This document shows positions 7,617-51,436 of a stretch of DNA of 64,000 bases, in pieces. This stretch comes from a virus (taxonomy: Duplodnaviria > Caudoviricetes). The first letter of the stretch is position 1; every line of letters starts with the position of its first letter. The DNA is taken from IMG/VR virus record IMGVR_UViG_3300033074_000806, positions 1-64,000 of that record; one strand, 5' to 3'. The translations under genes were made by a program, and so were the position numbers. Below the pieces are notes generated by a model. The model had not been told where the DNA came from, did no database searches, and saw nothing but the letters and a program-made list of their open reading frames with translations.

Positions 7617-7678
7617 GTGCATGACTCCAACAGAACGCTGTCATTTAATTGATAGGTAGACAGCATCACCTATTTGAC

Positions 7679-14229: not shown

Positions 14230-14750
14230 TGGGGATATACGATCAATTAATTGATCCACAAGGGAATAGATCGAGCCGATCTGCAGCTGATTCATATGGC
14301 ATGATAGGCCTAGATTTAGGCCTTGGACTGTTTGGAAATTGGGTAGGAAAAAAGGTTGCTAGATCAACGTTTAGATCAACGATGTCTCAGGCAAAAAAAT
14401 ATGACAACATCATTGGTCCATTATTGCCTGGACATTCTGAAAGACTTAGATCGGGCGCAAAAGCCTCCTACCGCAGTTGGAAAAGAACAGGTAAAAGTTT
14501 GTCTAATCTAGGCTGGTTGGCTGGAACTATATCCTTAATTGATCTCGCGATAGGATTGGGTAGTTCAATGGCTAATCCAATTGTAGGAAGAGACATGTCT
14601 ATCGATCAGGTATACGCTGGTAACGAGCTAATGCTAGATACCCGTACAGCTTACACACAAAGACAGCGCAGCCTAATGGCAATTCACGATAGTCAGTTGT
14701 CAATTGGTAGAGCTTTAATCGGCCAGGAAAGTCAATATTTACATAGGTAG
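14229..14750 (+). CDS. Gly-rich protein (possible virion/ejection protein)
   Basis: Gly-rich hydrophobic segments; TAATG coupling. Confidence 0.55.
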   Translation: MGIYDQLIDPQGNRSSRSAADSYGMIGLDLGLGLFGNWVGKKVARSTFRSTMSQAKKYDNIIGPLLPGHSERLRSGAKASYRSWKRTGKSLSNLGWLAGTISLIDLAIGLGSSMANPIVGRDMSIDQVYAGNELMLDTRTAYTQRQRSLMAIHDSQLSIGRALIGQESQYLHR

Positions 14751-14756
14751 AAAAGA

Positions 14757-16661: not shown

Positions 16662-16763
16662 CTACTATGGAGTTGGAGTTTATGTATCCACAAAATATTA
16701 TGATCGATGCGCTGCTTCTCGGCGAATTAGAAGAGGACGAAGAAATCCTAATAAGGCTTAAAA

Positions 16764-19664: not shown

Positions 19665-22636
19665 TGCGTAAAGATCTAGATTTTAATGGCATTAATCAAG
19701 AAGCTAAACCAAGAGAGCTATCTGAAACAGTTGGTAATAATATACCAGATCATAGCCAAGATAAGGCCGCTCCACCTGAAACAGATGTTTTAGAAGAAGT
19801 AACCTCTGCTATTTTTACTAACTTAGGAAAAACTTATTTAAAGGGCGAAGTTTTGCGAAAAGGTCTTGGGCTAATGGAGCCTGGCCAATTTATCACTGTG
19901 ACTGAAGATGCAGAGAAAGTATCAGCAGCATGTCGTAGAATCGCTTCTGAACCAACAAAATCCGGTGTAATTATCCCTTATAGTGTCTATACTCGCTGTG
20001 TAGATATACTATCAGATGCACAATGGCAAATTAGACGAGTCTATGAAAATATTGACATCCCACCTGATACAGAGAGTCATTCGAAGTATACAGTAAAGCA
20101 GTATAACAATAAGGGCGGCATATTAAACTTTATACAGCAATTTTTTAATGGAGATGGCATAGCAGGAGCTATTTTAACCGCTTTAGCTATAGCCCCATTT
20201 CAATTGCCTGGATTTTCGGTAATGTCTGTAGAGCAAGGAACAAAAGCCTATTTCATAGCACAAGTTCCACCTGCTATAGCACTATTTATAGAACTTGGGA
20301 TTAAAGCCTATAGACTTAAGGAATTCCTAAAAAACTCTGGAAAATTATCACCAGAAGTAGAAGATCTTATTGATGAACTAGATTCTAATCCAATTGCTAG
20401 AAAAGAAGCTCTTGGTTCAGCAGGAATAGATTATGAGTCATTTATTGATAGTTCACAAACAGATGATGCTAATGTAATAATTCAGTATTGTAATGAGTAT
20501 ATATCTGCAAACGGCTATCTTGGTCCTAAGAACTATGATCATTGGGTCGCCTATGGTTGCGTATCTGCTAGACAAAATATAGTTAGAGCCGCCTTTGATA
20601 GTGCTACGGACTACAGTAAAGACTTTTCAGAAGCCTTTAATCGAAATGTTCCAAATCCTGATTATGGCTCTGGCCCAGTAACCGCCGCATATGGCGTAAA
20701 ACCTACTACAAAAATTAATAATGTTATAGCTAGTCACTTTAATGAACTAGACCAAACTACTAATGATATCTATAATGATATTTTAAACTCGTTTATTTAT
20801 CAGGTTTCTGATAGCGACCTTTGCTGTGTTTCTTTTGATACTAAAATACAGCACAAAAATGGTATAAACAATATTTTAGACCTGGTAGGTAAAGAAATTG
20901 AAGTCTGGAATGGAGAGAAATGGTCGAAAGTCATTCCATTTAAGGCCGCAAGTAATAAAAAACTATTTAGAGTTACGTTAAGTGATGGATCCTATTTAGA
21001 TTGCACAGACGATCATAAATGGTTAGTTTTACCGCCTAAAGCGTCGAAATTTAAACAAGTAGAAACAAAAGATTTAATAATCGGCTCGAAACTTGAAACA
21101 TTTAATATTACTCACCCAATAGAAGGACAACATGAAGAATATGCATATGAATATGGGGCTTTTTGTGGTGATGGCTGCTGTGATAGATCTAGTAGGTGGA
21201 TCTGTATTTGTGGAGATAAAATAAAGCTTACTCAATTAGGGCTTAGAGGAAAATTATCTACTCCTAGAATAGATCCATTGTATAAAGATCCAGTATATAG
21301 GCTACATGTTAATCATATTTTAGATAAAGAAAAAACTAAACAATTAAGAGATATAAATGGATTACCTAACTGGGTGTTTCAGTTGGATAAACAATCTATT
21401 CTACAATTTATTGCAGGGTATATAGAAACAGATGGTAATGTAAGTAGACAATTAAATTCTGATTCCTATAGAATATTTGGATCTGAAGGTAAAATGCGAG
21501 ACTTACAGCTCCTATTAAGAAGAGTTGGAATAAATTTTGCTTCTGTGTATCTATATTCACCAAAAGGTCAAAAAACAAACAAAGGTGAAAGAACTTATAG
21601 TATATACTGCTGTCACATTCCTAGTTTTGAATGTGCATTAATACCTACAAGGTACAAAAAGGCGTCCAGAATTTCTTCTAGGTTCAAGAAAAACAATGCT
21701 CATCAAAAATCTGATTGTATTGATACTGCTAGGAAACAAAAAATCGTAAGTATTAAAGAATTAGAAGGGCTGCACGATACGTTCTGTTTCTCGGAGCCTG
21801 AGAAGCATATGGGTGTGTTTAATAACGTTTTGACCTATCAATGTCTAGTAGAAGTATTTGGATCTTTAGATCCAGAAATTCTAAAACTACTGGCGACAGT
21901 ATTAAGATTAGCAGCTATTGACTTAAATGCTGAATTAGCTAGACTACAAGATGCATTTTTTAGACAGTTAAACAACTTAAGCGCCGCAGCTATATATCAA
22001 ATAATTGAAAGGTTGCGCTCTCTTGAAGACAAGTTTGCTGTCAAAATTTTGAGATCTCTACAAGATGTCTTACCTAGGTTTGAACATTGTCCATCACTAA
22101 AGGACATAAGTTTTGCTATTTCTATGTCTTTAGGATCTTTAAGATCTCAAATTGATAAGCTTTTGATGGATGTTTTATTTGCTATTGATAGGCTCGGTAT
22201 GCCATCTACTTTGTCTTGGCGAGTTCCAGCAGACCGTAGGTTTTTACTTACCATTAGTAAAATACTTGACACCCTAGCTCTAAAACTTGAAGCTGCTGAT
22301 GTTTGCGCTCGCAAAGATATTGATCAGAAGCAATATGATTCTGCTTTGACTGATGCTAAAGATCAAGCCGCATATGAAATAACACATACCTTATTGACCG
22401 AAGGTAGTCCAGCAAGCATACAACTTACAGACGTAGAGATCAAAAAATACTTTCCAGACCTAAAAGCATCCAAGAGTAAAAACTTTAACTTTAACTATGG
22501 TCCAAAAACTATAACTGACTCAAATTACAGAGATGATGCTAAACAAACAAACTGTGAAAAATCAAATAGTAAAGAATATTTAGAAGGATTGAAGTTGGAC
22601 CTTTTAAAATCGATAGAAAAGAATTTTAAGGACTAG
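19664..22636 (+). CDS. Hypothetical (probably virion) protein between TerL and portal, with intein
   Basis: 990 aa; helical exteins with no recognisable catalytic motif. Confidence 0.75.
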   Translation: MRKDLDFNGINQEAKPRELSETVGNNIPDHSQDKAAPPETDVLEEVTSAIFTNLGKTYLKGEVLRKGLGLMEPGQFITVTEDAEKVSAACRRIASEPTKSGVIIPYSVYTRCVDILSDAQWQIRRVYENIDIPPDTESHSKYTVKQYNNKGGILNFIQQFFNGDGIAGAILTALAIAPFQLPGFSVMSVEQGTKAYFIAQVPPAIALFIELGIKAYRLKEFLKNSGKLSPEVEDLIDELDSNPIARKEALGSAGIDYESFIDSSQTDDANVIIQYCNEYISANGYLGPKNYDHWVAYGCVSARQNIVRAAFDSATDYSKDFSEAFNRNVPNPDYGSGPVTAAYGVKPTTKINNVIASHFNELDQTTNDIYNDILNSFIYQVSDSDLCCVSFDTKIQHKNGINNILDLVGKEIEVWNGEKWSKVIPFKAASNKKLFRVTLSDGSYLDCTDDHKWLVLPPKASKFKQVETKDLIIGSKLETFNITHPIEGQHEEYAYEYGAFCGDGCCDRSSRWICICGDKIKLTQLGLRGKLSTPRIDPLYKDPVYRLHVNHILDKEKTKQLRDINGLPNWVFQLDKQSILQFIAGYIETDGNVSRQLNSDSYRIFGSEGKMRDLQLLLRRVGINFASVYLYSPKGQKTNKGERTYSIYCCHIPSFECALIPTRYKKASRISSRFKKNNAHQKSDCIDTARKQKIVSIKELEGLHDTFCFSEPEKHMGVFNNVLTYQCLVEVFGSLDPEILKLLATVLRLAAIDLNAELARLQDAFFRQLNNLSAAAIYQIIERLRSLEDKFAVKILRSLQDVLPRFEHCPSLKDISFAISMSLGSLRSQIDKLLMDVLFAIDRLGMPSTLSWRVPADRRFLLTISKILDTLALKLEAADVCARKDIDQKQYDSALTDAKDQAAYEITHTLLTEGSPASIQLTDVEIKKYFPDLKASKSKNFNFNYGPKTITDSNYRDDAKQTNCEKSNSKEYLEGLKLDLLKSIEKNFKD
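20825..21841 (+). mobile_element. Intein (339 aa) ending in Gln, with LAGLIDADG endonuclease
   Basis: CVSFDTKI start, CTDDHKW, FCGDG, GYIETDG, ends HMGVFNNVLTYQ followed by C. Confidence 0.85.
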
Positions 22637-22638
22637 AG

Positions 22639-25600
22639 ATGACAGATTCTAATATACCTGTAAACGACATAAAACTATCAGTAGGTACTCCTAAAGAACT
22701 TAGTGAGGAGATGCTAAAAGCCCGTAGCAAGATGCTTGCTAAAGGTCTTTCATATGAGGGAAAAGGGACGTATATCCCATCTAGATCTTCTGACGGTAAC
22801 TTTGTCAGCCCCATTTATGATCTCGCAGAGATAGTTAGGTGCGTTGACGTAGAGCCTTATGTTGCCCAATCAATTCGGCGCCATAGAGAACAGATTCTAA
22901 AAGAAGGCTATAGTGTAGAGGGCGAAGATGAAGAAATGGTTGCTTATATAAAACAGCGACTATTTGAGATTTCTTTAGTTTCTGGCATACCAACTTCTAG
23001 CTGGATTAGAGAAGCTATTACCAATATGGTAACTTGCCATACCTCCTACTTAGTCTTTAGACGAGATGAGGATAGGTCTAGTGGATCCATTATCCAAATG
23101 TATGGTAAAACATTGTCTCCAATAGCTGGTATCTATACTGTTGACCCCACTACTATGTCAGTCAAGGTCGATAAGTATGGAACCCCTAAGCAATGGAAAC
23201 AAAAGATAACTGCGGACACTGGATTTGATTCTGGTGATACTGAAAAAACCTTTCCACCTGAAGATGTTGTCTGTATAACAGTCGATAAAAAGAGTGGATT
23301 TACTTTTGGAACACCATATATTTTGCCTGTTCTAGAAGATATTAGAGCATTACGAAAGCTAGAAGAGCTAGCGATGATTATTGCTAGTAAAGAAGCTTTC
23401 CCATTATACCACTACAAAGTAGGAACGCCAGAACAGCCAGCTATGGCTTATGAAGGCGGCGGGTCTGAAGTAGATATAGTTAAATCAGAAGTAGCTAATA
23501 TGCCTACTGGTGGTGCAGTAATAACAACTGAGCGACATGAAATTAATCTAATTAGTCGTCAAGGCGGCGCTCTAGATCTGCATCCATACCTAGAATACTT
23601 TGAGGCTAGAGTTTTGGCTGGTCTTAGACTATCTCCTATGGATCTAGGAAGAGGCGGTTCAGCTAATAGAGCCTGCTATTCCTCAGACACAGAAACTTTA
23701 ACCGATAAGGGCTGGAAGCATTATTGGAACATTGATATAAAGACTGATAAAATCGCTACTGTCGACCCAATAACAGGCGAATTAAAGTATGAGCTGGCCA
23801 ATGACTTATATGTCTACAAATATACAGGAAAAATGATCCACTTTGCTAACAATCTAATTGATTGCTTAGTAACTCCTGATCATGATATGTGGGTTAAAAA
23901 CAATGGCGCATTTAGCAAGATTAAAGCTGAAAAGCTTACAGAACTAGCTTCTAACGACCGCGATGCTTATACCTTTACTAATAAGGTTAATTGGCTAGCT
24001 AAAGATAAGTCTAACAAAGATTTAATAACTTTTGTCGCATACTTTATCCGCTATGGAAAAATAAATAAGTATAGAGAGGAAGTTAAATTTATTGTTAGAA
24101 ATCAAGAAGTTGCAAAAACAATAAAAGATTTCATAACAGGATTAAAACTAGAGTTTAGGTCCTATGATAATGATGGTTATACAAAAATTGTTATATACCA
24201 TCCAGATCTAGTTATCAAGCTATCAAAAGATCTAGGAACTTCAGAATATCCAAAGCGGCTACCGAGATGGATTCTTGATCTTTCTAAAAATGATCTTATC
24301 CATTTCTATTCTAAACTAACACAATTTGACAGCAGTTACGGTGAACTAAAAGTTTTCAGAGATCGTAGTTCAATTATAGTTAGTCAAGTGCAAGAAATAC
24401 TATTAAAAATAGGAATTGCCTCTAAACAAACAGAAACTGGATTATATCTGTTAACTGATGAGGATCCACAAGTAAAGTGGACATGGCAAGATTATGACGC
24501 TGATGTCTACTGCTTTAATGTTCCAAATCATTTATTTATCACCCGCAGAAATGGAATAATAAGTATTCAAGGCAATACTGCTAGCAATATAAATCAAAAT
24601 GTCCAAGATGCAGCTAAAGACTATCAAGAGGTGTTTAGCGATGCTATAACATATGGAATATTTATTCCTTTATTGTTAGAAGGTGGATTTGATATTAATG
24701 TAGAGAATATAGCAAAGCTAAGCTTCCCTATGATAAATAGAGAGGAACTTAGAGCCCACCAAAATCATGGACATCAGCTAATGATGGGAAATGCCATTAC
24801 TGATGATGAATTCCGTAAAGACTACTTGAAAAAGAAGCCTCTATCTGATGAAGAAAGGGCCCTATTGGCTAGACAGCTTGATACTGATTCTGCTAAAGAA
24901 ATAGAAAGTCATGCGGCCTCAGTTGCTCCAACTCAAACAACTGAAGGTCCTGGCGGACCGGAAGTAACGAAAACTATAACTAAGAAGCGTGGAAGTCCAG
25001 AAAATAATACGACTACCAAAAAAGTTATAAAAATGGCCAACAATAAGGGCCAACCAGCTAATCAGTATGGTAAGAAAGCAGCAAAGAGCAGATTTAAGGC
25101 TAACGACTATGCCTCAGCTGTATTAGATAATGTTGAGCAATTAACTAGCCGCCTATCCGAAATTGCAGTTTCAGACTTGGAAGATGTTGAATCTGAAGAT
25201 ATCAAAGACGAGATTGATCAAAATTTTAAAACATTTGTAACTATGTGTGGCCAAGAAGCAACTAAATACCTACCGGCTGAAATTGATAGCGGAGCGACAT
25301 TAGTTCCTGGAGGTCTACAAATTGGTTCTAGAGCTAAAGAGAAATTTTTGACAAACTATGTTCAAAAATCATATTACAAATTCTTAAATCCAATAGCTGA
25401 TAAAATAAAGGGCTGCTTCGAACGAGACATAGACGGAAATATGCCGAACTTCCTAAGTCTAAAAGAACTATCTGGAATCTCAAATTCTATCAATTTTTTG
25501 ATTAATGAGCATAAAGAAGTAGCTAAAAGATTTGGATTTGCTAAAGCTGCAAGAAACTTAGGCTATAATTCAATGATATTAGAAAATATTGAATCTAAAG

Positions 25601-25725
25601 ATCGCAAAACTATTGACCTTCCTTTAAAAGGTCCTATTCCATATCAAAATCTTATAGCTGATAGCAAAAATTACCAGTTGTTACTTGGGAATAAGGTAGG
25701 GAGTGTCACAGAATCAGATGAATAA
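22639..25725 (+). CDS. Portal protein with intein
   Basis: Position before protease/MCP; FGTPYILPVLEDIRALRKLEE and LGRGGSANRA|TA portal-type segments. Confidence 0.8.
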   Translation: MTDSNIPVNDIKLSVGTPKELSEEMLKARSKMLAKGLSYEGKGTYIPSRSSDGNFVSPIYDLAEIVRCVDVEPYVAQSIRRHREQILKEGYSVEGEDEEMVAYIKQRLFEISLVSGIPTSSWIREAITNMVTCHTSYLVFRRDEDRSSGSIIQMYGKTLSPIAGIYTVDPTTMSVKVDKYGTPKQWKQKITADTGFDSGDTEKTFPPEDVVCITVDKKSGFTFGTPYILPVLEDIRALRKLEELAMIIASKEAFPLYHYKVGTPEQPAMAYEGGGSEVDIVKSEVANMPTGGAVITTERHEINLISRQGGALDLHPYLEYFEARVLAGLRLSPMDLGRGGSANRACYSSDTETLTDKGWKHYWNIDIKTDKIATVDPITGELKYELANDLYVYKYTGKMIHFANNLIDCLVTPDHDMWVKNNGAFSKIKAEKLTELASNDRDAYTFTNKVNWLAKDKSNKDLITFVAYFIRYGKINKYREEVKFIVRNQEVAKTIKDFITGLKLEFRSYDNDGYTKIVIYHPDLVIKLSKDLGTSEYPKRLPRWILDLSKNDLIHFYSKLTQFDSSYGELKVFRDRSSIIVSQVQEILLKIGIASKQTETGLYLLTDEDPQVKWTWQDYDADVYCFNVPNHLFITRRNGIISIQGNTASNINQNVQDAAKDYQEVFSDAITYGIFIPLLLEGGFDINVENIAKLSFPMINREELRAHQNHGHQLMMGNAITDDEFRKDYLKKKPLSDEERALLARQLDTDSAKEIESHAASVAPTQTTEGPGGPEVTKTITKKRGSPENNTTTKKVIKMANNKGQPANQYGKKAAKSRFKANDYASAVLDNVEQLTSRLSEIAVSDLEDVESEDIKDEIDQNFKTFVTMCGQEATKYLPAEIDSGATLVPGGLQIGSRAKEKFLTNYVQKSYYKFLNPIADKIKGCFERDIDGNMPNFLSLKELSGISNSINFLINEHKEVAKRFGFAKAARNLGYNSMILENIESKDRKTIDLPLKGPIPYQNLIADSKNYQLLLGNKVGSVTESDE
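23674..24576 (+). mobile_element. Intein (301 aa) with degenerate endonuclease in the portal
   Basis: CYSSDTETLT start, VTPDH, ends VYCFNVPNHLFITRRNGIISIQGN followed by T; first LAGLIDADG motif decayed (YFIRYG). Confidence 0.85.
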
Positions 25726-36876: not shown

Positions 36877-38478
36877 ATGGCGAACAGTGATTTTCTTCCA
36901 TCCGTTGAGCTTACCCTCAACGACCTTGGGCTTAGAATAGCGCCACCACCCGCTGGTCCTAAATTGACTCTATTAGGTATTACTAGTAATACTACTCTAC
37001 CTATACGTGAGCCAATGACGGTCAGCTCAGCTGAAAAAGCAATGAACGCTCTTTATTTCAGCGGTGCATCTGGTCCTACTTTTCCCGGGGAATTAGCTCT
37101 TGCGATCGAAGAGGCAACGGCAGCAGGAGCCCCAAACATTGAAGTAATAATTATCGGGACTTATACTGGTAACCCCTTACTTCAATATATTTGTCCAACT
37201 GGAACTGGCTTACGATATAACGATCTCTCAGGAGCTTATGAGGTTCTTAAGAATAGAGATATAGACGTAGTTGTGCCCGTTGGTGCCTATATCGATGATA
37301 TAAAGACAGGCTTAACTGCTAACACTAACTATGGTGTTCAGTTAGCTAATTTCTTGTATCAATCAACCAAGTCCCAGAACAGCGCAGTTGGTGTAATAGC
37401 TACATCTCCTGTTGTTTACTGGGCAATCCAGCGGTATACAGGGCTATGCCTTGATATAACCGGTGGTGCAGCTAGCAGAGATCCAAGTCTTTTTGCTGAA
37501 ATGACTGGGTTAGCAAACGTAGACGCTTCTGGTTCGATCAGAAATGTTTTCTTCTCGACACCATCGACTACGCTAACCAATGAATGGCTTGCATATCATT
37601 CTTACTACCAGACAGGCTTAACTCCTGCTTCAGTTCTAAGTGGCTATTTTAAGACTTCAGTTTTCAGCGGCGTGTATTACAATACTGCCTACATTTCCTA
37701 TCTACATGGATCATATGACCTATCATTCAATAGATTCGAAAATGCTGCTACCTCAAGTCAATTAGCAGGTGATTATTTTACTTACTGGCAAGCTCGTGGA
37801 TCTGATGGAGCTTTTGCAACTGATGGAAGAGGCGTTAAGGTTGATGCTGGAGCGTATATTAGCGTATTCTGCTCACCAGTTAAAACTGCAACAACTCAAA
37901 CTAGCACTCTTTCAACTGTTTTAGGCGCTTCAATATCCAACTCTTACCATACTACAGCCGGTGCTGCAGCCTATGGTGGGGCGATACTCAGCTTAGCTCC
38001 TCAATCGTCTACTACAAACAAGCCTATTGGTGGATTAATTCCATTGAAGACAATATCAGCTGCTCAAGCTAATATTTTGACAGGGCTAAGACTAGTTACA
38101 ATGTATACTAGATCTAAGGGATTTGTTGTAGCTAGTGGTGTTACTGGAGCTTATAACGTCAATCAATACTTAAGATCTGACTTTGTAAGATTAACTACAG
38201 TAAGAATTGTCCACACCGTGGTAGATCTAATCAGAGCAATAGGTGATAAGTTCCTAGGTGAGCCAAACAACGCTCCTCAAATGAACGCACTTAATGCCGA
38301 GATAGATCAAGTATTACTAAGTATGAAGTCAGCTCAAGCTCTAAATGGATATGACTTCGTTGTATCCTCAACCCCAGAACAACGTGTTCTAGGACAGGCT
38401 GATGTCAGTCTAACTTTAGTTCCAGCTTTTGAAATTACTAAGATCAACTTAACAGTTTCACTTGCTGATTCTATCTAA
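36877..38478 (+). CDS. Tail sheath protein
   Basis: C-terminal SDFVRLTTVRIV...FLGEPN...LTLVPAFEITKINLTV sheath signature. Confidence 0.88.
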   Translation: MANSDFLPSVELTLNDLGLRIAPPPAGPKLTLLGITSNTTLPIREPMTVSSAEKAMNALYFSGASGPTFPGELALAIEEATAAGAPNIEVIIIGTYTGNPLLQYICPTGTGLRYNDLSGAYEVLKNRDIDVVVPVGAYIDDIKTGLTANTNYGVQLANFLYQSTKSQNSAVGVIATSPVVYWAIQRYTGLCLDITGGAASRDPSLFAEMTGLANVDASGSIRNVFFSTPSTTLTNEWLAYHSYYQTGLTPASVLSGYFKTSVFSGVYYNTAYISYLHGSYDLSFNRFENAATSSQLAGDYFTYWQARGSDGAFATDGRGVKVDAGAYISVFCSPVKTATTQTSTLSTVLGASISNSYHTTAGAAAYGGAILSLAPQSSTTNKPIGGLIPLKTISAAQANILTGLRLVTMYTRSKGFVVASGVTGAYNVNQYLRSDFVRLTTVRIVHTVVDLIRAIGDKFLGEPNNAPQMNALNAEIDQVLLSMKSAQALNGYDFVVSSTPEQRVLGQADVSLTLVPAFEITKINLTVSLADSI

Positions 38479-38493: not shown

Positions 38494-39189
38494 ATGGCTA
38501 GTTCACAAGCTCAAAGAGGAATAGCTCCTTCTGGTGCAGGTAGAAGCGCGGCCTCCTTCCAAAAAACCTATAACTCCTTTTCAGGGGTTGATATGGTTGT
38601 AACGTTTGGAGGTAAAGTTATAGGCGAGTTGCAAGGCCTATCCTATACAATACAACGCGAAAAAGCTCCGATATACACTATGGGTTCAGCTGATGCTAGA
38701 TCTTTCTCTCGTGGAAAGAGAGGTATCGCTGGATCTGTTGTATTCGTAGTTTTGGATCGTTCCGCTCTACTTGAGACCATGAGAGATGTTCCGTATATTG
38801 CTAACAAGTATGATATTCCACTTGGATTTGCAATAAATGATGTAGACATTCCAACTATAGAAATTGGAACAGGTCTAATCGGTTCCGCTAGCGGCTCTGC
38901 AAATATAACTATCTCAAGAATAGTTATAGATAAAGTTCTCGCTAGACCACAATATCTTGACCAGGTTCTACCTTTCGATATAGTCATTACTGCGTCCAAT
39001 GAATATGGAGCATTTGCTAACATGAAAATTCATGGTGTCGAAATTTTGAATACTGGTTCAGGCATGTCTATTGATGATATTACAACAGACGAAGCATGCA
39101 CATTCGTAGCTACTTCTATAACTCCTTGGAGCAACCAAGGATTTATTCGAACCACGAATGGCGGAACTTCAGCTGAGATAATAACCTAA
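38494..39189 (+). CDS. Tail tube protein
   Basis: SFSGVD...GELQGLSYTIQREKAPIYTMG...SRGKRGIAGS...PFDI; follows sheath. Confidence 0.8.
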   Translation: MASSQAQRGIAPSGAGRSAASFQKTYNSFSGVDMVVTFGGKVIGELQGLSYTIQREKAPIYTMGSADARSFSRGKRGIAGSVVFVVLDRSALLETMRDVPYIANKYDIPLGFAINDVDIPTIEIGTGLIGSASGSANITISRIVIDKVLARPQYLDQVLPFDIVITASNEYGAFANMKIHGVEILNTGSGMSIDDITTDEACTFVATSITPWSNQGFIRTTNGGTSAEIIT

Positions 39190-40040
39190 TGGCCAGTAAC
39201 CCAGCGATTATAAAGAATCCAAACCTGCTTCAGCAGCGTCTGAAAGAGGGCACTCTTGGACAAGTCAAAGAATCTTCATACGCTGGGGCTGATATATTAG
39301 CTTATATCAATATTCCACTATTAGATGATCCTACCCAATTATCCTCAAATACACCTAGTGCTAGGATACTTGGTGAAATTCAAACAATCTCGATTTCTTC
39401 TACGAGATCTATATCGCCTGTTAGAACACTTGGGCGATCAAATCCCATTGGGTATACTCGTGGAGGAAGAACCTTTGCTGGCACTCTAGTATTTGCAGCA
39501 TTTGGAAGAGATGTTTTTTCTGATCTATATCGCCCAGACATTGTTGAAAGCTTTATAGATAGCAGCACAAGTCTTTTTGTTGATCAACTCCCACCTTTTT
39601 CTATAATAATTACAGCCTCTAACGAGCTCGGCGGGTTGGCTCAACAGATTATTTCGGGTATTACCCTAGTTAACTATGGTGTCACATACAGTATCGATGA
39701 TATATACACTGAAGTTTCCTACACTTATGTAGCCACTGATGTAACACCGCTATTACCTATTCAAGTTATGAGAGGCCTGGCTAATAGGCCCGCATATAAG
39801 ACTCCCCTAGACATAGGGTTGACAGATCTTCCTAATATTAAAGCATCAGATCGAAATAAATTTGATGGGACCTCTCAACACTTAAAAAGCCCCCAGAATA
39901 TACTACGTAGTTCTGAGGCAATTAATTTAGAACAAGCAAACGGCCTAATACAGGATGAGTTCTTTTGGACTCGTTCTGCTGGTAGAAACACTATACAAAG
40001 AACAGGATCTAGGCAAAGCTTAAGAGATTCACTAAGATAA
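39189..40040 (+). CDS. Tail tube-like paralogue
   Basis: SYAGAD...GEIQTISIS...PVRTLG...TRGGRTFAGT...DQLPPFSI...SIDD, collinear with previous gene. Confidence 0.75.
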   Translation: MASNPAIIKNPNLLQQRLKEGTLGQVKESSYAGADILAYINIPLLDDPTQLSSNTPSARILGEIQTISISSTRSISPVRTLGRSNPIGYTRGGRTFAGTLVFAAFGRDVFSDLYRPDIVESFIDSSTSLFVDQLPPFSIIITASNELGGLAQQIISGITLVNYGVTYSIDDIYTEVSYTYVATDVTPLLPIQVMRGLANRPAYKTPLDIGLTDLPNIKASDRNKFDGTSQHLKSPQNILRSSEAINLEQANGLIQDEFFWTRSAGRNTIQRTGSRQSLRDSLR

Positions 40041-44700: not shown

Positions 44701-46031
44701 TTGCCCCATATAGCACTGCTTATCAAAAATATCTAGCTAAAATTGGGAATCCTGAGAGATATGCTCCGTATTGGCGCGATAAATTAAAAGCAGCAATAAC
44801 TCAAAAGGATACTATTGTTAATCAGTTGTATCAGTATGAAAGAATAAAGCCAGGTATAAATGATTTAAATAGTAAGACTAAAGCTGGCGGATTCTATCAA
44901 ATGCTGCAGAAGGGATGGGATTCGTTAACACACGATGTCTTAGCAGAAATTCCATATTTTGGTAGTAAGTTCGCTCCATTTAGAGATGCTTTAGAAAGAT
45001 ATGAAAAAGAACAGATATATGGAGATAGCTTTGCTGATTGGAATAGACCCTGGGAAACTATAGTTCGGCCAGCTATTTATGATACTGCAAGATCAAATCC
45101 AGTATATGGGGCTGCTAAGGGTGCTATAATCGGCGCCCTAATGAGCAATGCTATTCCAGGAGTAGGCGGTTCATTGTTTAACCCTGTTGTAGGTCTTAGA
45201 AATTCAGCAACTGCTATACCATTCTTTGGAGCTGTTGGCGCAGCTTTAAGCTTAGGTAGATCAGCTATTACCGATCAGCATTTCGTTCCGCCACATAAAC
45301 AAAGCGAAATTGAAGCTCAAGACTATATGGATAGAGTTGTTTACGCAAAGGCTAGATCTTTTGAAATAGCGGCAACAGAGATGGGCGATAAAGAGCTTGC
45401 CAGCGGCTATGCCCGTCTAGCTGGAAAAACACTAGTTGGAGCAACTAGCCAACGTGGAACAAAATCAGCTTTAAACTCCTTTGATAGAAAGTATTTTGAT
45501 ACTTTTGTAAATAGTGAAGAAAGCGGAAGATCGGAATTACTAGCAAGATTGCCACAATATTATGGGCACGCGCTCAATAAAGTCTGGTCTAATGACTATG
45601 GCACAGAGCGTCAGCACGATTTAGAGACATTAGAATACTTTAGCAATAACGCACCACCGTCTACAGATTCATTAATATGGCACCCATCTGTTCCAACTTC
45701 TGCTTTGAAGATTAAAATGATTCAGGGCGGAATTAATGGCGTTAGTGATAACCTACATCGATTTGGATTTTACGAAAGTCAGGGCCTAGAGGCGGCTGAT
45801 AGATTCCCAAATGTCAATTTTATGACTACTAGTAAAATTAGCTCGCCCAATTTTAACTCGCTAAAAAACGATATACAGATTAATTTAAGACGACTAAATC
45901 CATTTGCTAATCCTGAGAATGTAAAGATCAAACAAATACACAATAGCCAATATAATCAAGCTTACGAGATAAGTCAAAAAATTGATAGAAAGCAAGAAAC
46001 CTATAGATACATGAGCGATATAATGAGATGA
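41754..46031 (+). CDS. Large tape-measure / ejection-type virion protein
   Basis: 1425 aa, Gly/Ala-rich hydrophobic patches, position after chaperones. Confidence 0.55.
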   Translation: MADSFNQEANNQKAENSGILTSILAGLGVIGLGQIIYGRAGKGNLIADLLHFTGNTLRGKGIDLKYAANAGKSRPTSGASAGARTVLDTSIDVRTGALRLDDLSIVKDLVYQARVIGASSASDQRSALTELTKNAIAARYKQSNVVSFFGQKLERLTVGEVLADQKRFQQSIGKNSWEVIRSAEERGIIKKDYILDTRIFATSKGIRDTRLKPLGKSILKNVDFLGLSSVVKAVTIGADQRFGILPGSAGGPLKFFIDGDIYSFSRSKEGVLKTNKVPGKFILRDANDPLHVATRLRSGEAYVEDPKPTNLYNKLQSALGIGTAYRNRDSLFTSIFINPIKRLRALETGEGILYRKPYKKTTSAAAEAAFGDIAPEAFGADNYVKTAGQQTPKLSELKFLDRLKVTFGVHDELAIIKARSYREKLRFNKVLTNTDLVVPRPTGRVKNVDTFFASKLSGQVIDAANSYTGAGEVTNRLKSKFYTARAGLGNKVLDFTNYAITRLNSLASGSLAGIGFKVSGSIKTNLFRLAGIPLAYEGIKETAGYLDYLSESTIGVSPLKLLGDAYATARVAQQKFREITGIQQLMKTAEEDFPGAVNSELGFFGRTAAAPFLTFMKGVKSGLGVKKSGILAGVMEFLFGGSSPEQTSEELSKEYSGITKVPVRRGALWGMGYQPFFGGDIQYYDYSWYYKMQSDYKTKSLYGSREEYYTKHANVLGIPLPTPSNLFGIRNLFNNYALEEANYYRRPYQETAGMFDEFPIFGPMLSATVGQLIKPTKKMHVSELYGLPAQTASLVDRTLPLNSAKRLGITDIPVTEMMLQDSSDPLVRLQQQAAIATEPLGIYQFILTYLGVNLKYNQANDPASASIMGSAGRELYDSNLGGFFGQTEFIRRFFPSEKYLASKQRQLYNPLRNLMPTWLPGIGSEEKSDQDYFMDFLHGDPYAKLESGDSRLPGVGYEALNPLYSNMPGVYSDVDRFLILSDVAPYSTAYQKYLAKIGNPERYAPYWRDKLKAAITQKDTIVNQLYQYERIKPGINDLNSKTKAGGFYQMLQKGWDSLTHDVLAEIPYFGSKFAPFRDALERYEKEQIYGDSFADWNRPWETIVRPAIYDTARSNPVYGAAKGAIIGALMSNAIPGVGGSLFNPVVGLRNSATAIPFFGAVGAALSLGRSAITDQHFVPPHKQSEIEAQDYMDRVVYAKARSFEIAATEMGDKELASGYARLAGKTLVGATSQRGTKSALNSFDRKYFDTFVNSEESGRSELLARLPQYYGHALNKVWSNDYGTERQHDLETLEYFSNNAPPSTDSLIWHPSVPTSALKIKMIQGGINGVSDNLHRFGFYESQGLEAADRFPNVNFMTTSKISSPNFNSLKNDIQINLRRLNPFANPENVKIKQIHNSQYNQAYEISQKIDRKQETYRYMSDIMR

Positions 46032-49000
46032 AAGAAATAATTGATAGGTCTCGTCAAACGTTTAATAAACTGTTCGATACTATAGGTAAATTCGGCAGTA
46101 AGTATGATGTTTATAACTTTACTGCATTCGATACTGAAACAAACGCGCTATTAAAGGGCGATGCTAAACTAGGTGCCCAAACAGATATCTTTAAGCAGGG
46201 CGCATCTGGCATAAGAACTATATTTGCTAGAAAGGCAGTTTTTGATAGATTTGGTAATGTAAAGGATGAATCAGCAGTCCATTTATTGATGGGTGGTGGT
46301 AAGATATCTACCCAAGGTGAAAAGTTCTTCAAAGATGTTGGGCTAACAATAGATAGGATTCTTCCTAACTTTGAAACCATCCCCAGTGAATATAGAGAAA
46401 GATTAAGAGGTAAGGCCTTAACTAATAGATCTCTTAACTATTTAGAGGCTGTTCAAAAGAAAACAGGTAAGAAATTATTGACAACTGAGGGCGAGCTAGC
46501 AGATGTTCTAAATAATATGCTAGGACATTCAACTAATACTATGAATGTCGCTATTGGACATAACGCTAGTAGATTCGATTTGATGATGGCCAGAGGTGTT
46601 AAAGGATTTAAGGGTGTAGGCAGCTCTACACATATCCTAGATACTTATGAGCTAACCACTAGAATGTTCCCTGAGCTAGCAGTAGAAAAGACTGGCGCCC
46701 TAGAACTAGATAATCTTATATCTTTAATGATGTATGAGTCTGGTAATAAGACTAAAGCTAAAATAAAAGATCCACTAAGACAGGCGACAGCCACTGAAGT
46801 TGATGCTCTAAAATTCTATGGAATTGATAATGTTCCACAAGAATTTAAAGCAGTATCAAAAATGTTTGGCGGTTCAACTGGAGTTCTTGCTGCCGGCGCA
46901 CATAGTGCCGATGTTGACTCGTTACGGTCTATGGCGATACTACATGCTGCTATGCTAAGAGCAGAAACATCTAAATCAGCATCAGAAATCTTTCATGGTT
47001 ATCTAACTGAGATCGGTGTCAAAGAACATCTATCTGCTATAGATATAATGAGTCGTATTAAGAAATTTGATCCTCAGCAAGTTTCTAGATACATGAATGT
47101 TGGAGGATATAAAGGTAAGATAAAAGACCTATTTGATATACTACAATCAGGACAAACTAGTATAGATGATTTAACTATTTATTCCAGATCTGGAATGAAT
47201 GAGTTATTTTCTGAATTAGGTAATCGATTTGGAAAAGGATTTGTATCCTCGTTTGCCCCAACAGCTAGAGCACTAGCAGAAGGGATGGACGCTGGAGTTT
47301 TCATGCTACGTGGAAACTCTCTTAAGTTTGGTAGGTTGGGAGACGCAGCATCTTTTATTTCCCTACCAACGCAGAACTTTAATAAGTTAGGCAATGGATT
47401 AATAAATATGGGCGATAAGCTTCGCTCAGTGACTAATCTATTAAGCCTAGGAAACAATAAAACAACAGTAGTCCCTTTTAGCCGATTCTTCTATTCTAAT
47501 ATGAATAGAATAATTGGAAGTGGTTTAAATCCTACTGATAGCAATGCTGCATATGCACTGCCAAATATAGTTAGACAAACGCTAGGAACTAAAGTATTTG
47601 GAACTAAATCACTGGGCTCCTTATTAGGATCTCATCCAACAGAGATGGGATTACCGAACTTCTCTGCTATTACAGCAAAAGCTGGAGTCTTACAGGTTAT
47701 AGAAAGTAATGCGCCCATTGTCCAGCATTATAAAAACCTCCAACAAGGAATACAATTAAGAAACCTAAGCATTGGGAATAGCCTTTCTAACTTTAAGAAA
47801 GCTAGAAAAATAATCGAAAGCAGCATCTCTGGTATCAGTTCTGAGCTTAATAGGCTAGGCATCGGCGCACAAGCAGCTTTTTCCAAAGCTGAGTCCCTAT
47901 TAGATGATGGATTAAAGTTAACTGTCGGCAGCTTATTAAGTGATATGACTATTCCAGAGGTCAGAGGCTTTGAAAAAGGTCGGCTAAGAAGACTTGGAAC
48001 AATATCCAATAGCCATACTGCGCGGTTAAGAAAACTTGGCAGACCTGTAGGTCCGTCTGTAATTTCTGAAAAGTGGGAATCAGCTGGCATAAGAAGCTCA
48101 TTCCAAGGCGGCGTATTTGTTGCTGAGTTTGATACGATGTCAAATTTAAGATCTTCATTTGAAGATTCAGCTGTATATGCTAGCAGAACTGGTTTGAATC
48201 TATTAAAGCAAAAAAGATATGCAGGTAGCGTAACTTTAAGAGACTGGTCAGCTAGAGACGTAAGTTTATTAAATCAATATTTAGATCCAACAGGAGCATT
48301 TAATTTAGAGCCTGGTATCGATTTTAGACCAACAGATGAGTCTGGTTATTTTAAAGTTCGTAATAGAAGAATGTTCTCTGATAAACGCAGAGAAATCGCT
48401 GCTGAATTATTTAGTGGAAAATCTAAAATTCAAAGACGTGTATTAGAGCAAATTATACGAGGCAGAGCAGCTTTGTCCCAAGCTGTGTTCACAGAAGATG
48501 CAATACAACTAAAATTTGCCACTAGAGCGTTTACAGGCAGTAGATCAGATAGCATCTTACTGGGCCCGTTGGGATCTCTTAGAGCCACAGTAAATGGATT
48601 TGTTGGCGGACGCATTTCTAAACTGATGCGCTCAATTGGAGCTGACTTCATCATGTCAGCAGAAAACTTAAAAGGTGCAGCCCCAGCTGATTTAATTACA
48701 CAGCATAGAATTTCATTGGTTCAGAGAGAAGGTGCCTTAGATGAGCTAGTTGGTTTCTTTAATTCTCAACGAGATGGATTTAGACTCGCACCGTCTAGTG
48801 TTCCTGGTGTTCGCACTCTAGTAATGCCATCTGGCGTAACAAAAGATGAGGTTCTAAAGTTTACTGAGCTATTCAAAACTCATTTAGTTAAAACTGCCGC
48901 TGAGCATTTGGATAAAGATAGAACACGTAGAACCTTAAAAATAATACGTGGGTATGATGGTATAAGAGCATCAGGCAATGTCATAAGAAAGATAGCTAGC

Positions 49001-51436
49001 ATAGGCATGAAGGGCATAACTTCTGCTTCTAGACTATTCTTGACAGATATACATCTTAGATCCGATGCATCTGATGTTAACAGATTAAATAACGTTAGAT
49101 GGAATGCCAGCCATATAAATCAGTATAAGCAATCCTTAGCAGCTACAGGAATCTCTGGTAACTCTGTATCTAGATTCTTAGAACAAGCTATGGCTAGAGC
49201 GACTGGATTTAGCTTATCAAAGGGCGTATTAAATCCTGGCCGACTAGGCTTTATTGGTCAAGCAATGACTGGCCAATTACCTTCTGATGCCTATATCCTA
49301 CGATTAGGAGCCAATAAGCAATTCTTTGATCAGCATGGAACCGCATATTCATTCCTGCCCAAGGTTGGTTCTGGACACGTATTAACTCCAGAAAGCTTAA
49401 AAGGAACAATCTACGATACTAACTATTCAGATCGTCAATTTTTTATCGATTTTGGACAAGCTGAACGATTCTCAGTTAGAGGAAGAAAAGAAACACAGGT
49501 ATCTACTAGATACTTACCAGTCCCAAATTTAAGAAAAATACTAGGGGTTAAGGTCGGACCAGGAGGTGCTCATGTATCTTCTTCGTCACTGGCTGGTAAA
49601 GTTTTTAGAGCTATAAGAGCTTATTCTAGTGAAGGTAATTTAGATGTAGTTCACACTCTTAAAACTGGTGGCAGATATTCTGTTAGAGACACTATATCGG
49701 CTGCTATGGATAAACTTATATCCAGCATACCAGGTAAGAAAGGACTAGCAAAGTCACTTACAACGTTCTCCATAAAAGAATCTGTAAACGCTAGATTGCT
49801 AGGTAAAGCACCCACTGGAAATTTAACCGACGCGTTTATTGCTGAACTAGATTCGCGGCAATTTGCTGAATGGGCTCATGTAAAATTTGGTAAGGAGAAA
49901 GCTCAGAAGTTTTTAGCAATGGCGGAAAATGATGCCCTTTATGGATTCGTAAGGGCAGATCCTATGCAAAAAGGTGGCCATGCAGCTATCATAAAATATA
50001 AGCTGATAAATCGTGGCAGGAATCCTAATGCAAAAATGGATGTGGCATTAGATCCTTATCTAGTTTCTAGACTAAATAGAGACGTTGATAAGGATGCTGT
50101 CAGATTATTGCTATTCGATCAAATAAGTGCCAAGGATTTGGAGCTTGATTTTAATCAACAAGTTGCTGCCCATGCTGTAGACTTTAATACCTATCTAAAG
50201 AATCTATCTAATACAAAAGCACCATCCATTAATGGCATACTAACCAACTTTATAGAGTCGGCAACTAAGGGTTTTCAACAAAGCTCAGACACACTAACAG
50301 CCCACCTCGGCATGAAGATGAATGCCAGCCTTGGATATACTCTATCTAAGGCTCCAGAAAGTATACTGAATAGGGCTTTAGAAGCTAAGTCTCCTGAAGA
50401 CTTAATTAATATACTAACTAGTAGAGGCGTAGATAGAAATTCAATTAATGATGAGATCATTAAAGCACTTACTGAACAAAGCAAAGATAAGACCGCAGCT
50501 GCTATAGAACTATTCCAGTCCTTTAAGCAGGCTGGAGTTAAGAAGGGTGCAGTTAAGACTGCAATGTATGATTTAATTGAAGAGGTTACTGGACTAATGG
50601 AACGAATTCGTTCTGGTAGCAGTAACTTAAGTGAAGCTATTGATGTTAGCTCTAAGGTATTTACTAACTTTTTTCAGCAGATAGCTGGCGAAGATTTAAT
50701 AAGACCTAGCTCCGCTGCGAAATTTTTGACTGATAATATTCCTGAAAGTGCCGGTAAGCTAGTTGGAGAAACTTATGGTAGAGCTTTTTTTGCTGTCTCC
50801 TCCTTAAGAGGAAAGGTATCTGATGCTTTATCTATGACTAGGGCAAATGCGCCAGATACTAAAGAAATTTTAGGAGCAACATTAGAAGCAGATCAGACTT
50901 CTCTATTAGATGATGTAATGGGTGAGTCAACAGTTGGAGATGAAGTTCTAGAATCATCTACGCAAAAGCTGAGAGCAAGTTTATCATCTAGAGCCGGTGA
51001 GTTTATTGGAACACAACTTGGTAATGCCAGAAACTTCTTGCGTTCTGATGGTGGCAGGTTAGCTCTTTGGGGCGCTGGATTATTAGGAGCGTATAGCTTA
51101 TTCTCTGCTATGACTTCTAATCCTGACGAACTTGCGCCACCTCCGTTACAGCTAAATCAGACTTCTGCGCCATTGCCTCCACCTCCAATGTTGCAGCAAC
51201 CGATGGACTATGGAATACAAAATGTTCCCCAGCTTGATCAAAAAATTGCTAGGATAAGTCCAACACATCCTGCACATATGCCGAGACAATCAAAAATTAG
51301 ACACTATACGCGCCACAGCCCTGGATACCCTTCCGCAAATATCAATGGCCGTATAGAAGATGATACTAGTAGTATGAATAGTGCTATTATCTCTCAGAGG
51401 ATGAAGCACATTGCAAATAGCGATTTCGTGTATTAA
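46028..51436 (+). CDS. Large virion-region protein: N-terminal DEDDh 3'-5' exonuclease + RNA polymerase beta-prime-like catalytic barrel
   Basis: AFDTET, GHNASRFD, ILDT, AHSADVD; FVRADP...ALDPYLVSRLNRDVDKD (50075-50095); C-terminal hydrophobic helix and Pro-rich tail. Confidence 0.65.
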   Translation: MKEIIDRSRQTFNKLFDTIGKFGSKYDVYNFTAFDTETNALLKGDAKLGAQTDIFKQGASGIRTIFARKAVFDRFGNVKDESAVHLLMGGGKISTQGEKFFKDVGLTIDRILPNFETIPSEYRERLRGKALTNRSLNYLEAVQKKTGKKLLTTEGELADVLNNMLGHSTNTMNVAIGHNASRFDLMMARGVKGFKGVGSSTHILDTYELTTRMFPELAVEKTGALELDNLISLMMYESGNKTKAKIKDPLRQATATEVDALKFYGIDNVPQEFKAVSKMFGGSTGVLAAGAHSADVDSLRSMAILHAAMLRAETSKSASEIFHGYLTEIGVKEHLSAIDIMSRIKKFDPQQVSRYMNVGGYKGKIKDLFDILQSGQTSIDDLTIYSRSGMNELFSELGNRFGKGFVSSFAPTARALAEGMDAGVFMLRGNSLKFGRLGDAASFISLPTQNFNKLGNGLINMGDKLRSVTNLLSLGNNKTTVVPFSRFFYSNMNRIIGSGLNPTDSNAAYALPNIVRQTLGTKVFGTKSLGSLLGSHPTEMGLPNFSAITAKAGVLQVIESNAPIVQHYKNLQQGIQLRNLSIGNSLSNFKKARKIIESSISGISSELNRLGIGAQAAFSKAESLLDDGLKLTVGSLLSDMTIPEVRGFEKGRLRRLGTISNSHTARLRKLGRPVGPSVISEKWESAGIRSSFQGGVFVAEFDTMSNLRSSFEDSAVYASRTGLNLLKQKRYAGSVTLRDWSARDVSLLNQYLDPTGAFNLEPGIDFRPTDESGYFKVRNRRMFSDKRREIAAELFSGKSKIQRRVLEQIIRGRAALSQAVFTEDAIQLKFATRAFTGSRSDSILLGPLGSLRATVNGFVGGRISKLMRSIGADFIMSAENLKGAAPADLITQHRISLVQREGALDELVGFFNSQRDGFRLAPSSVPGVRTLVMPSGVTKDEVLKFTELFKTHLVKTAAEHLDKDRTRRTLKIIRGYDGIRASGNVIRKIASIGMKGITSASRLFLTDIHLRSDASDVNRLNNVRWNASHINQYKQSLAATGISGNSVSRFLEQAMARATGFSLSKGVLNPGRLGFIGQAMTGQLPSDAYILRLGANKQFFDQHGTAYSFLPKVGSGHVLTPESLKGTIYDTNYSDRQFFIDFGQAERFSVRGRKETQVSTRYLPVPNLRKILGVKVGPGGAHVSSSSLAGKVFRAIRAYSSEGNLDVVHTLKTGGRYSVRDTISAAMDKLISSIPGKKGLAKSLTTFSIKESVNARLLGKAPTGNLTDAFIAELDSRQFAEWAHVKFGKEKAQKFLAMAENDALYGFVRADPMQKGGHAAIIKYKLINRGRNPNAKMDVALDPYLVSRLNRDVDKDAVRLLLFDQISAKDLELDFNQQVAAHAVDFNTYLKNLSNTKAPSINGILTNFIESATKGFQQSSDTLTAHLGMKMNASLGYTLSKAPESILNRALEAKSPEDLINILTSRGVDRNSINDEIIKALTEQSKDKTAAAIELFQSFKQAGVKKGAVKTAMYDLIEEVTGLMERIRSGSSNLSEAIDVSSKVFTNFFQQIAGEDLIRPSSAAKFLTDNIPESAGKLVGETYGRAFFAVSSLRGKVSDALSMTRANAPDTKEILGATLEADQTSLLDDVMGESTVGDEVLESSTQKLRASLSSRAGEFIGTQLGNARNFLRSDGGRLALWGAGLLGAYSLFSAMTSNPDELAPPPLQLNQTSAPLPPPPMLQQPMDYGIQNVPQLDQKIARISPTHPAHMPRQSKIRHYTRHSPGYPSANINGRIEDDTSSMNSAIISQRMKHIANSDFVY

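Follow-up and report, generated by a model that had tools for sequence, protein, structure and literature searches.

Does the tail operon of a large phage encode an RNA polymerase (RNAP) that travels in the virion, and why would such an enzyme carry a nuclease? This question is raised by P0001, the product of an open reading frame of 1802 codons at positions 46028..51436 (+) of IMG/VR virus record IMGVR_UViG_3300033074_000806 (Duplodnaviria; Caudoviricetes). The window analyzed here is the first 64 kb of this 130,587-bp record, whose completeness is estimated at 68%. An earlier note, made by eye from the letters of this DNA, had described the same reading frame and proposed that it hides an RNAP-like domain behind an N-terminal DEDDh exonuclease; the predicted fold, the conservation of its motifs, and the genomic logic now support the hidden polymerase domain. 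Judging by its modeled structure, P0001 is most probably a single-chain two-barrel nucleotide polymerase, specifically a DNA-dependent RNAP. With moderate confidence, we regard it as an RNAP delivered by the virion, from a sequence family that is new, comparable to the tape-measure-fused virion RNAP (vRNAP) of Thermus phage P23-45 and carrying a novel exonuclease fusion; its catalysis and packaging we infer. In the model, the parts of the protein follow one another as exonuclease (residues ~25-330), beta/Rpb2-like module with second barrel (430-1020), beta'/Rpb1-like module with catalytic barrel (1064-1620), and C-terminal tail (1621-1802).

Predicted fold and putative catalytic motif of P0001

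What fold does the bulk of the protein adopt? Residues 430-1620 were modeled with AlphaFold2 from a 21-sequence alignment, residue 1 of the model being residue 430 of the protein. The resulting core is globular and mixed alpha/beta, not an extended helical ruler, with a mean predicted local distance difference test score (pLDDT) of 80 and a predicted template modeling score (pTM) of 0.73. When this model was compared with the PDB using Foldseek, each of the top 50 matches was an RNAP chain, and almost every one was of the largest-subunit (beta') type; the best were the non-virion RNAP (nvRNAP) of AR9 (7s01_d, E 8.3e-4), the phiKZ nvRNAP, and bacterial beta'. A search by VIA-align of 48,161 representative PDB chains, which is independent of Foldseek, gave two-barrel RNAPs nearly all of the first 20 places. 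Prediction of a double-psi beta-barrel (DPBB) fold was a check named in the earlier note; a two-barrel RNAP fold is predicted with good confidence and is recovered by an unbiased structure search.

The two halves of the core resemble the two large subunits of cellular RNAPs. The beta/Rpb2-like module (residues 430-1020, model 1-590; 47315..49087, +) was matched by VIA-align to AR9 nvRNAP chain 7s00_C with a Z of 12.1 (root-mean-square deviation (rmsd) 3.4, 218 residues aligned), to 7ogp_C with a Z of 10.6, and to vaccinia 6rfl_B and Pol I 4c2m_B, both with a Z of 11.4 (411 and 415 aligned, respectively). Residues K620, K650, G651, D713, R1011, and D1016 of this module are invariant in the family. 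It includes a candidate second barrel, DPBB-B (residues ~815-933, boundaries approximate; 48470..48826, +). The stretch that the earlier note had singled out as a beta-like barrel (840-877, with SDSILLGPLGSLRATV starting at 840 and ADFIMS at 872) does lie within the beta/Rpb2-aligned module, on predicted strands, and the structural alignment of this region to beta/Rpb2-type subunits (Z 11-12) stands beside a single conserved Arg, R852.

The beta'/Rpb1-like module (residues 1064-1620; 49217..50887, +) comprises the catalytic barrel and a helical region that follows it. Model residues 632-1191 matched the beta'-type chains 7ob9_A (Z 9.2), 2pmz_A (Z 8.8), and 6edt_D (Z 8.4). Bare DPBB domains (CDC48-N, VAT-N, PEX1-N) align to model 822-957 with Z of 6.6-7.4, which places the catalytic barrel, DPBB-A, at residues ~1251-1386 (49778..50185, +). 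Long helices come after it (model 939-1163), and the beta'/Rpb1 alignments continue through to model 1136-1191; the bridge helix and trigger loop would lie in this region. Single-chain enzymes align across both barrels, led by QDE-1 (7y7p_A, Z 10.5, 420 aligned), P74-26 gp62 (8f5m_A, Z 8.8), and RDR2 (Z 7.7), as do the virion enzymes P23-45 gp96 (8h2m_A, Z 6.7) and phi14:2 gp66 (6vr4_B, Z 6.5).

Where would catalysis reside? A putative metal-binding Asp triad is found in R-D-V-D-K-D (residues 1351-1356; 50078..50095, +), with DVDKD starting at 1352 and GFVRADPMQKGGH at 1306. All motif strings listed in the earlier note were found where it had placed them, and its by-eye alignment to E. coli beta' around NADFDGD was reproduced from the actual RpoC sequence. 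In the model, the triad is in a loop of the DPBB domain that connects a short helix to a beta-strand. The surrounding secondary structure runs strand YGFVRA, loop DPMQKGGH, strand AAIIKYKLI, strand MDVAL, short helix, loop NRDVDKD, and strand AVRLLL, matching the beta' order VLLNR, APTLHRLG, IQAFEPVLI, KAIQLH, helix, NADFDGD, and QMAVHV. A DPBB-A domain carrying a DxDxD metal-binding triad marks membership of the two-barrel RNAP superfamily, and the predicted fold of P0001 contains such a domain.

A MAFFT alignment of the family has its most conserved part in the very segment picked by the earlier note. R1351, D1352, D1354, and D1356 are invariant in the homologs that cover the site, 18 of 18 with close relatives left out and 20 of 20 in a further alignment. 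Upstream, in DP.Q...H, P1312 never varies, and 16 of the 18 have Q1314 and H1318; further downstream, K1441 and K1506 are invariant in the family alignment. Conservation of the Asp triad, the second check that had been proposed, thus holds among homologs at 23-37% identity. Could the motif nevertheless be a chance DxDxD in a plain tape measure? For the length and composition of P0001, 0.27 occurrences are expected and one was found, which is not beyond chance, and the genomic position described below would fit a tape measure. With the count near chance, the evidence lies in the invariance of the motif and its structural setting, not in its occurrence. Fold prediction, structure searches, and motif invariance all contradict an ordinary tape measure, a reading that we consider very improbable.

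The predicted N-terminal DEDDh exonuclease domain

What precedes the polymerase core? Residues ~25-330 (46100..47017, +) are predicted to form a DEDDh (DnaQ-like) 3'-5' exonuclease domain with insertions between its motifs. These occur in the order Exo I (DxE) in FTAFDTET at residue 31 (D35, E37; 46118..46141, +), Exo II (NxxxFD) in IGHNASRFD at 176 (H178, N179, D184; 46553..46579, +), and Exo III in GAHSADVD at 290 (H292, D297; 46895..46918, +), the last as H-x-A-x-x-D, the form that defines the DEDDh subclass. ILDTY is at residue 203, where the earlier note had located it. That note had called the DEDDh set complete, as indeed it is, and a weak but very consistent fold match now backs it. 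In the five exonuclease-bearing members of the family (P0001, P0004, P0005, P0008, P0009), D35, E37, H178, N179, F183, D184, and D297 are invariant, while H292 is kept in four and has moved one position in P0009.

When a model of the N-terminus was searched against the same 48,161 chains, nearly all of the top 50 matches were DEDD exonucleases. The best was ExoI (1fxx_A, Z 7.4, rmsd 5.0, 162 aligned), followed by the exonuclease-like domain of Pol theta, TREX1, DinG, RNase T, Nibbler, ExoX, epsilon, ISG20, and RNase D; the top Foldseek matches were TREX1/2, with non-significant E-values. From this model, we accept with moderate confidence a DEDDh domain of RNase H-like exonuclease fold. It shares all three Exo motifs, including H-x-A-x-x-D, with known DEDDh exonucleases (ExoI, RNase T, TREX1/2, Pol III epsilon, ExoX) but differs from them in its long inter-motif insertions and in its fusion to a two-barrel polymerase. 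Sequence comparison indicates that the exonuclease is restricted to one subclade: the other relatives, which make up most of the family, have a different, shorter N-terminus without it. A search for shorter stand-alone relatives of the domain found none, and in the literature searched no two-barrel RNAP fused to a DEDD exonuclease is reported.

Might the nuclease point to a different reaction? P0001 could be a two-barrel polymerase with another job, as a DNA polymerase or primase or as an RNA-templated enzyme, whose DEDDh domain does genuine proofreading, as happens with PolD plus DP1 or with DNA polymerases of families A and B. Fusions to 3'-5' exonucleases are typical of DNA polymerases, and a search of the 130-kb record for DNA polymerases of families A, B, and C found none. 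QDE-1, the best single-chain structural match, uses DNA and RNA templates (PMC9508822), and PolD shows that the two-barrel fold can make DNA (PMC6355029). However, the record is only ~68% complete, and because a DnaG-DnaB primase-helicase is encoded right where it stops, the rest of the replication module probably lies beyond the contig; moreover, the P0001 gene lies in a tail operon, not among replication genes, and most members of its family have no exonuclease. We consider such another job improbable and retain the assignment as a DNA-dependent RNAP.

The tail operon, the tape-measure slot, and the P0001 family

Where in the genome is the polymerase encoded? Three giant genes lie here in tight coupling, with P0001 in the middle: the TGA of the upstream gene P0002 and the ATG of P0001 overlap (ATGA), and a gap of 2 nt separates the P0001 stop from the start of P0003. 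P0002 (41754..46031, +) encodes 1425 residues with an N-terminal transmembrane helix and is a homolog of gp145 of Bacillus phage 0305phi8-36 and of ME3_35, both annotated as virion structural proteins. P0003 (51439..57804, +; 2121 residues) is a homolog of the baseplate hub 0305phi8-36 gp147/ME3_37. On the 5' side of the trio are a capsid gene, terminase and portal genes described as intein-interrupted, the tail sheath gene (36877-38478; phrog_16991, E 4e-51), and, between the sheath and P0002, two tube-like paralogs and three small chaperone-position genes; on the 3' side are baseplate genes, a gp6/J-like wedge among them. Because sheath, tube-like, chaperone-position, and baseplate genes surround P0001, this region is the tail module of a large myovirus. 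P0001 is translationally coupled to its neighbors in a contractile-tail operon that runs sheath, tube, chaperone-like genes, gp145-like gene, P0001, baseplate hub.

Since the flanking genes are gp145 and gp147 homologs, P0001 occupies the slot of 0305phi8-36 orf146. Synteny with orf145-146-147 and with ME3_35-36-37 thus puts a polymerase in the tape-measure slot of a tail module, one gene away from the chaperone-like genes and 5' of the baseplate hub. The positional equivalent gp146 is annotated as 'hypothetical tape measure protein', which fits the suspicion in the earlier note that P0001 is likely to be mis-annotated as a tape measure. The GenBank record states that mass spectrometry detected both gp145 and gp146 in virions. 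The trio of genes is also found in Acinetobacter phage ME3, and the same three-gene arrangement surrounds both of the distant P0001 homologs whose contigs were inspected.

In the C-terminal tail (residues 1621-1802; 50888..51433, +), conservation is seen in a hydrophobic segment rich in Gly and Ala (1676-1695, bases 51053-51112) and at the end, where D1778 and S-D-F-x-Y lie; the tail also has a Pro-rich stretch. Its similarity to the extreme C-terminus of 0305phi8-36 gp146 (hhalign E 0.04) and to the C-terminus of Moorella phage MTATph1 CDS0031 (hmmsearch E 0.003 against four sequences) is weak and non-significant; in the 0305phi8-36/Moorella lineage, only the last 60 residues of the tape-measure-position protein are conserved. 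By sequence, the tail may be an anchoring module shared by proteins of the tape-measure slot, and we propose that it acts as a tail/hub anchor or in membrane insertion. With residues 430-1620 predicted to be globular alpha/beta and not a long, mostly helical ruler, tape-measure-like anchoring could be possible only for the last 180 residues of P0001. As a separate observation on the Moorella phage locus (10539-12026), a transposase gene lies between CDS0027 and CDS0031 and apparently splits the middle protein of the trio.

Does location in the operon imply packaging? P0001 might instead be an active but non-packaged RNAP, made late with the tail genes and acting in the cell, for example on late genes, its place in the operon being incidental. 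Many phages encode two two-barrel RNAPs with divided labor (PMC10770324). An enzyme whose synthesis begins along with that of the tail proteins, however, would come too late for most transcription. The P0001 gene is also tightly coupled between genes with virion-protein homologs, in an arrangement kept in distant relatives, and its conserved C-terminal tail resembles the sole conserved part of tape-measure-position proteins. We give a non-packaged enzyme little credence next to a virion-delivered one.

How far does the family extend? Two close relatives of P0001, at 81% and 77% identity, were found among 5.8 billion clustered proteins, and an exhaustive HMMER scan of residues 620-1802 against 1.84 billion cluster representatives returned 21 proteins, mostly at 23-37% identity. 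The sole match in PHROGs was phrog_37419 (unknown function, E 0.004), which covers residues 1340-1404. A tblastn search of 50,697 phage records with P0001 gave no match, the ESM Atlas held no usable match for P0001 or P0002, and a single query of IMG/VR for related loci returned no relatives. A Foldseek search of predicted viral structures, by contrast with these sequence searches, found full-length look-alikes, which either carry the annotation 'minor tail protein' (E 3e-16, 1224 columns) or are uncharacterized proteins of Acinetobacter phage ME3 and Microcystis phage MaMV-DC. The family profile had no significant match in the ME3 and Ma-LMM01 genomes, nor did hidden Markov model searches against ME3_36, gp146, and the Moorella phage proteins.

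ME3_36 (13173-17984 of the examined ME3 locus; 1603 residues, 'hypothetical protein') belongs to a jumbo phage in culture, vB_AbaM_ME3 of Acinetobacter. Flanked by ME3_35 and ME3_37, it fills the slot that P0001 has here, and BFVD gives it as a structural look-alike. The protein has one DxDxD, laid out as in P0001, with SREPAQG, GGDHDQD ~45 residues on, and then a hydrophobic strand. No sequence relative of ME3_36 was found among isolated phages, and the literature searched makes no mention of such an RNAP in ME3. ME3_36 is therefore put forward as a candidate cryptic RNAP in an isolate that can be grown, and the structure-level relatives in ME3 and the Microcystis phage hint that the P0001 family is broader than sequence searches reveal. 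The idea that every phage with the tail-module trio hides a polymerase was also considered and was rejected, the 0305phi8-36 and Moorella equivalents having no DxDxD at all.

What weighs against a virion-delivered RNAP? Several findings do, the first of them from sequence searches. Pfam searches with the whole of P0001 and with three pieces of it gave nothing relevant at E up to 10, PF00623 and PF00562 had no match across the genome, and none of the RNA_pol_Rpb1_2, RNA_pol_Rpb2_6, and RdRP Pfam models recognizes P0001. Searches of PDB sequences (including 8H2M) by phmmer and profile hmmsearch gave nothing meaningful, and hhalign comparison of the family profile with E. coli RpoB and RpoC, gp146, and the second polymerase of this phage (P0026, described below) gave no significant match. 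With no sequence-level link to a known RNAP, the polymerase assignment rests on predicted structure. P23-45 gp96 likewise has no detectable sequence similarity to known RNAPs outside its DFDGD motif (PMC10770324). The second barrel, DPBB-B, by definition supplies two basic residues to the active site (PMC7824862), and these are not clearly present in P0001. The usual lysines, two in cellular beta, are not kept, as the earlier note had remarked; near the expected loop the P0001 subgroup has the one conserved R852, and most exonuclease-less relatives have an RR pair a few residues upstream of it. The AlphaFold2 model of residues 1-430 reaches a pLDDT of only 52, yet has the expected order of strands and helices, and the Pfam model RNase_T (PF00929) did not match P0001 even at E 10, probably because of the long insertions between the motifs. 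Neither 0305phi8-36 nor Moorella phage MTATph1 has a DxDxD in its positional equivalent of P0001; occupying the slot is thus no sign of a polymerase by itself, and different lineages fill it with different proteins. While gp146 resembles P0001 in its slot, it has no detectable homology to the P0001 family, and the recorded virion proteins are only the homologs of the neighbors and this non-homologous equivalent. Finally, a folded enzyme of 200 kDa has no obvious fit in the lumen of the tail tube.

Would an inactive protein account for these findings better? P0001 could be an exapted, catalytically dead polymerase fold that serves as a structural component of the tail or of ejection, as a tape measure or a channel former. 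The tape-measure slot, the loss of the second-barrel lysines, the existence of 0305phi8-36 and Moorella equivalents that do without the Asp triad and are presumably functional tail proteins, and a C-terminal tail conserved as in tape-measure-position proteins would all suit this proposal. On the other hand, homologs at only 23-37% identity keep R-D-x-D-x-D, P1312, Q1314, H1318, K1441, K1506, and further polar residues with little or no change, which is the pattern of a working active site and not of a scaffold, and the globular alpha/beta model offers no extended helical ruler. We hold a dead fold to be unlikely and continue with P0001 as an active, virion-delivered RNAP.

A probable second polymerase and comparison with known systems

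If P0001 enters the cell with the DNA, does the phage encode another RNAP to follow it? The early region contains P0026 (5246..7594, -; 782 residues), which carries RDPSLP...GGDYDGD and lies in a stretch of 54% GC in a genome of 38% GC. The Pfam RdRP model PF05183 (QDE-1/RDR family) scored P0026 at 22.1 bits (E 2.7e-6) against a cut-off of 23.8. In a specificity control with 14 genomes, the sole PF05183 match was in Bacillus subtilis; strain 168 carries yonO of prophage SPbeta, which we presume is the probable cause of that match. The best PDB sequence match of P0026 is 8F72, the non-virion RNAP gp64 of P23-45, aligned on the barrel motif at an E of 0.77 that is not significant alone. P0026 is likely, by these sequence matches, a non-virion RNAP of the YonO/QDE-1/P23-45 gp64 type. 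Two-barrel polymerases are thus encoded at two places in this phage, the early arm and the tail operon, and look unrelated to each other; P0026 provides the companion non-virion two-barrel RNAP in the early region that belongs to a gp96-type system.

How close is this arrangement to that of P23-45? There, gp96 is a tape-measure-fused virion RNAP (PDB 8H2M/8H2N; Chaban et al. 2024, PMC10770324). It transcribes the pre-early genes, including gp64, whose product then transcribes the early and middle genes, a two-polymerase cascade that was shown experimentally (PMC10770324). P0001 resembles gp96 in being a predicted two-barrel RNAP that a tailed phage encodes in its tape-measure gene or slot, paired with an early-region polymerase like gp64/YonO, and the structural match to 8h2m_A spans both barrels (rmsd 5.4, 334 aligned, model 115-1114). 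However, the two have no sequence similarity, and the Z of 6.7 is below that of cellular subunits, so that P0001 would be like gp96 in working at most and lies outside its sequence family. P23-45 is a siphovirus in which a 5,002-residue tape measure begins with 1,100-1,200 residues of RNAP, whereas in the myovirus studied here polymerase and exonuclease take up ~1,600 of 1,802 residues and leave only a 180-residue tail. The catalytic motif is DFDGD in gp96 and RDVDKD in P0001. Moreover, gp96 is minimal, flat, and clamp-less, at ~800 residues without an exonuclease, while the P0001 core has ~1,170 residues and matches cellular beta/Rpb2 better (Z 11-12).

Other phage and cellular enzymes share single features with P0001. 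phi14:2 gp66 of the crAss-like phages (PDB 6VR4) is likewise a large single polypeptide with both barrels and a variant DxDxD, and the structural alignment covers 526 residues (rmsd 6.5); virion association is presumed for P0001. It differs in coming from a short-tailed phage, in having its gene outside the tape-measure slot, and in lacking both an exonuclease and sequence similarity to P0001. The multisubunit RNAPs of AR9 and phiKZ (7S00/7S01, 7OGP, 8QUE) supply the best structural matches for both halves, 7s00_C and 7ogp_C on the beta-like half and 7s01_d and 8que_A on the beta' half, but consist of four or five polypeptides with sequences recognizable as cellular beta/beta', whereas P0001 is a single chain invisible to Pfam. 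In the class of QDE-1, YonO, and P23-45 gp64, one chain also carries the second barrel followed by the catalytic barrel; P0001 is larger, with extra N- and C-terminal parts, and is missed by the Pfam RdRP model that nearly reaches its cut-off on P0026.

How might the two polymerases be deployed? The template, product, and timing of P0001 activity we infer as follows. P0001 would be built into the virion through its C-terminal tail and would leave it together with the DNA at infection. It would then transcribe the first-entering genes, P0026 among them, after which the YonO/gp64-like P0026 would take over transcription. The exonuclease could act on nucleic acid ends at entry, by trimming the 3' end of the incoming genome to create a single-stranded template, by degrading host nucleic acid, or by excising misincorporated 3' nucleotides. 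A bolder and decidedly tentative proposal is that contractile-tailed phages like 0305phi8-36 and ME3 harbor, in the tape-measure slot, a family of injected single-chain RNAPs of cellular type, in one subclade of which the DEDDh exonuclease prepares a single-stranded template or provides the first exonucleolytic proofreading by a two-barrel RNAP; ME3_36, with its DHDQD, would be the tractable member.

Why would such a system matter? To our knowledge, phage RNAPs are delivered by three routes, the N4-type T7-like enzyme, the phiKZ-type multisubunit enzyme, and the single-chain two-barrel enzyme of crAss-like phages and P23-45, and we know of no prior link between a polymerase and the tail tape measure other than that in the siphovirus P23-45. 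A polymerase in the tape-measure slot is reported only for P23-45 in the literature searched. P0001 suggests that large contractile-tailed phages use a P23-45-like solution with an architecture closer to cellular beta/beta' than that of gp96, in a sequence family that no annotation tool recognizes. No counterpart of the DEDDh fusion is described for any two-barrel RNAP: a nuclease acting on the transcript would represent a new kind of transcriptional proofreading, and one acting on the genome end a new way of creating a template at entry. Among the proteins of large phages that are annotated as 'tape measure' or 'minor tail protein', many may be enzymes.

Further features of the record were observed alongside these genes. 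An 18-bp palindrome, CTRTCA-N6-TGAYAG, occurs at 18 sites with <=1 mismatch against 0.67 expected; 14 of them lie in the first 9 kb (early arm, 86-8998) and the others at 13791, 20797, 56703, and 58671. The copy at 7638-7655 is ~45 bp upstream of the P0026 start, and by sequence the palindrome is a candidate early promoter or operator. Directly 3' of the sheath gene, two adjacent paralogs (window 38494-40040, +) match phrog_9206 ('major head protein'); by position, they correspond to the tail tube and tube paralog of 0305phi8-36 (gp140/gp141), and the PHROG label looks misleading. Signatures of Hint, Intein_splicing, and LAGLIDADG are found at window 14757-25725 and at 126751-130392 (-) of the full record. 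They fall in a Metallophos protein, the large terminase, a 990-residue open reading frame (19664-22636), and the primase-helicase, an unusually high load of intein and homing-endonuclease signatures, and the portal-like gene has an inserted segment that matches a PHROG named thymidylate synthase. Outside the window, at 108946-123330 (-) of the full record, a sugar-nucleotide cluster encodes an RmlD-like protein, two NAD epimerase/dehydratases, a DegT-type aminotransferase, a UDP-GlcNAc 2-epimerase, and a GT1 glycosyltransferase, with which the phage may make or modify a sugar.

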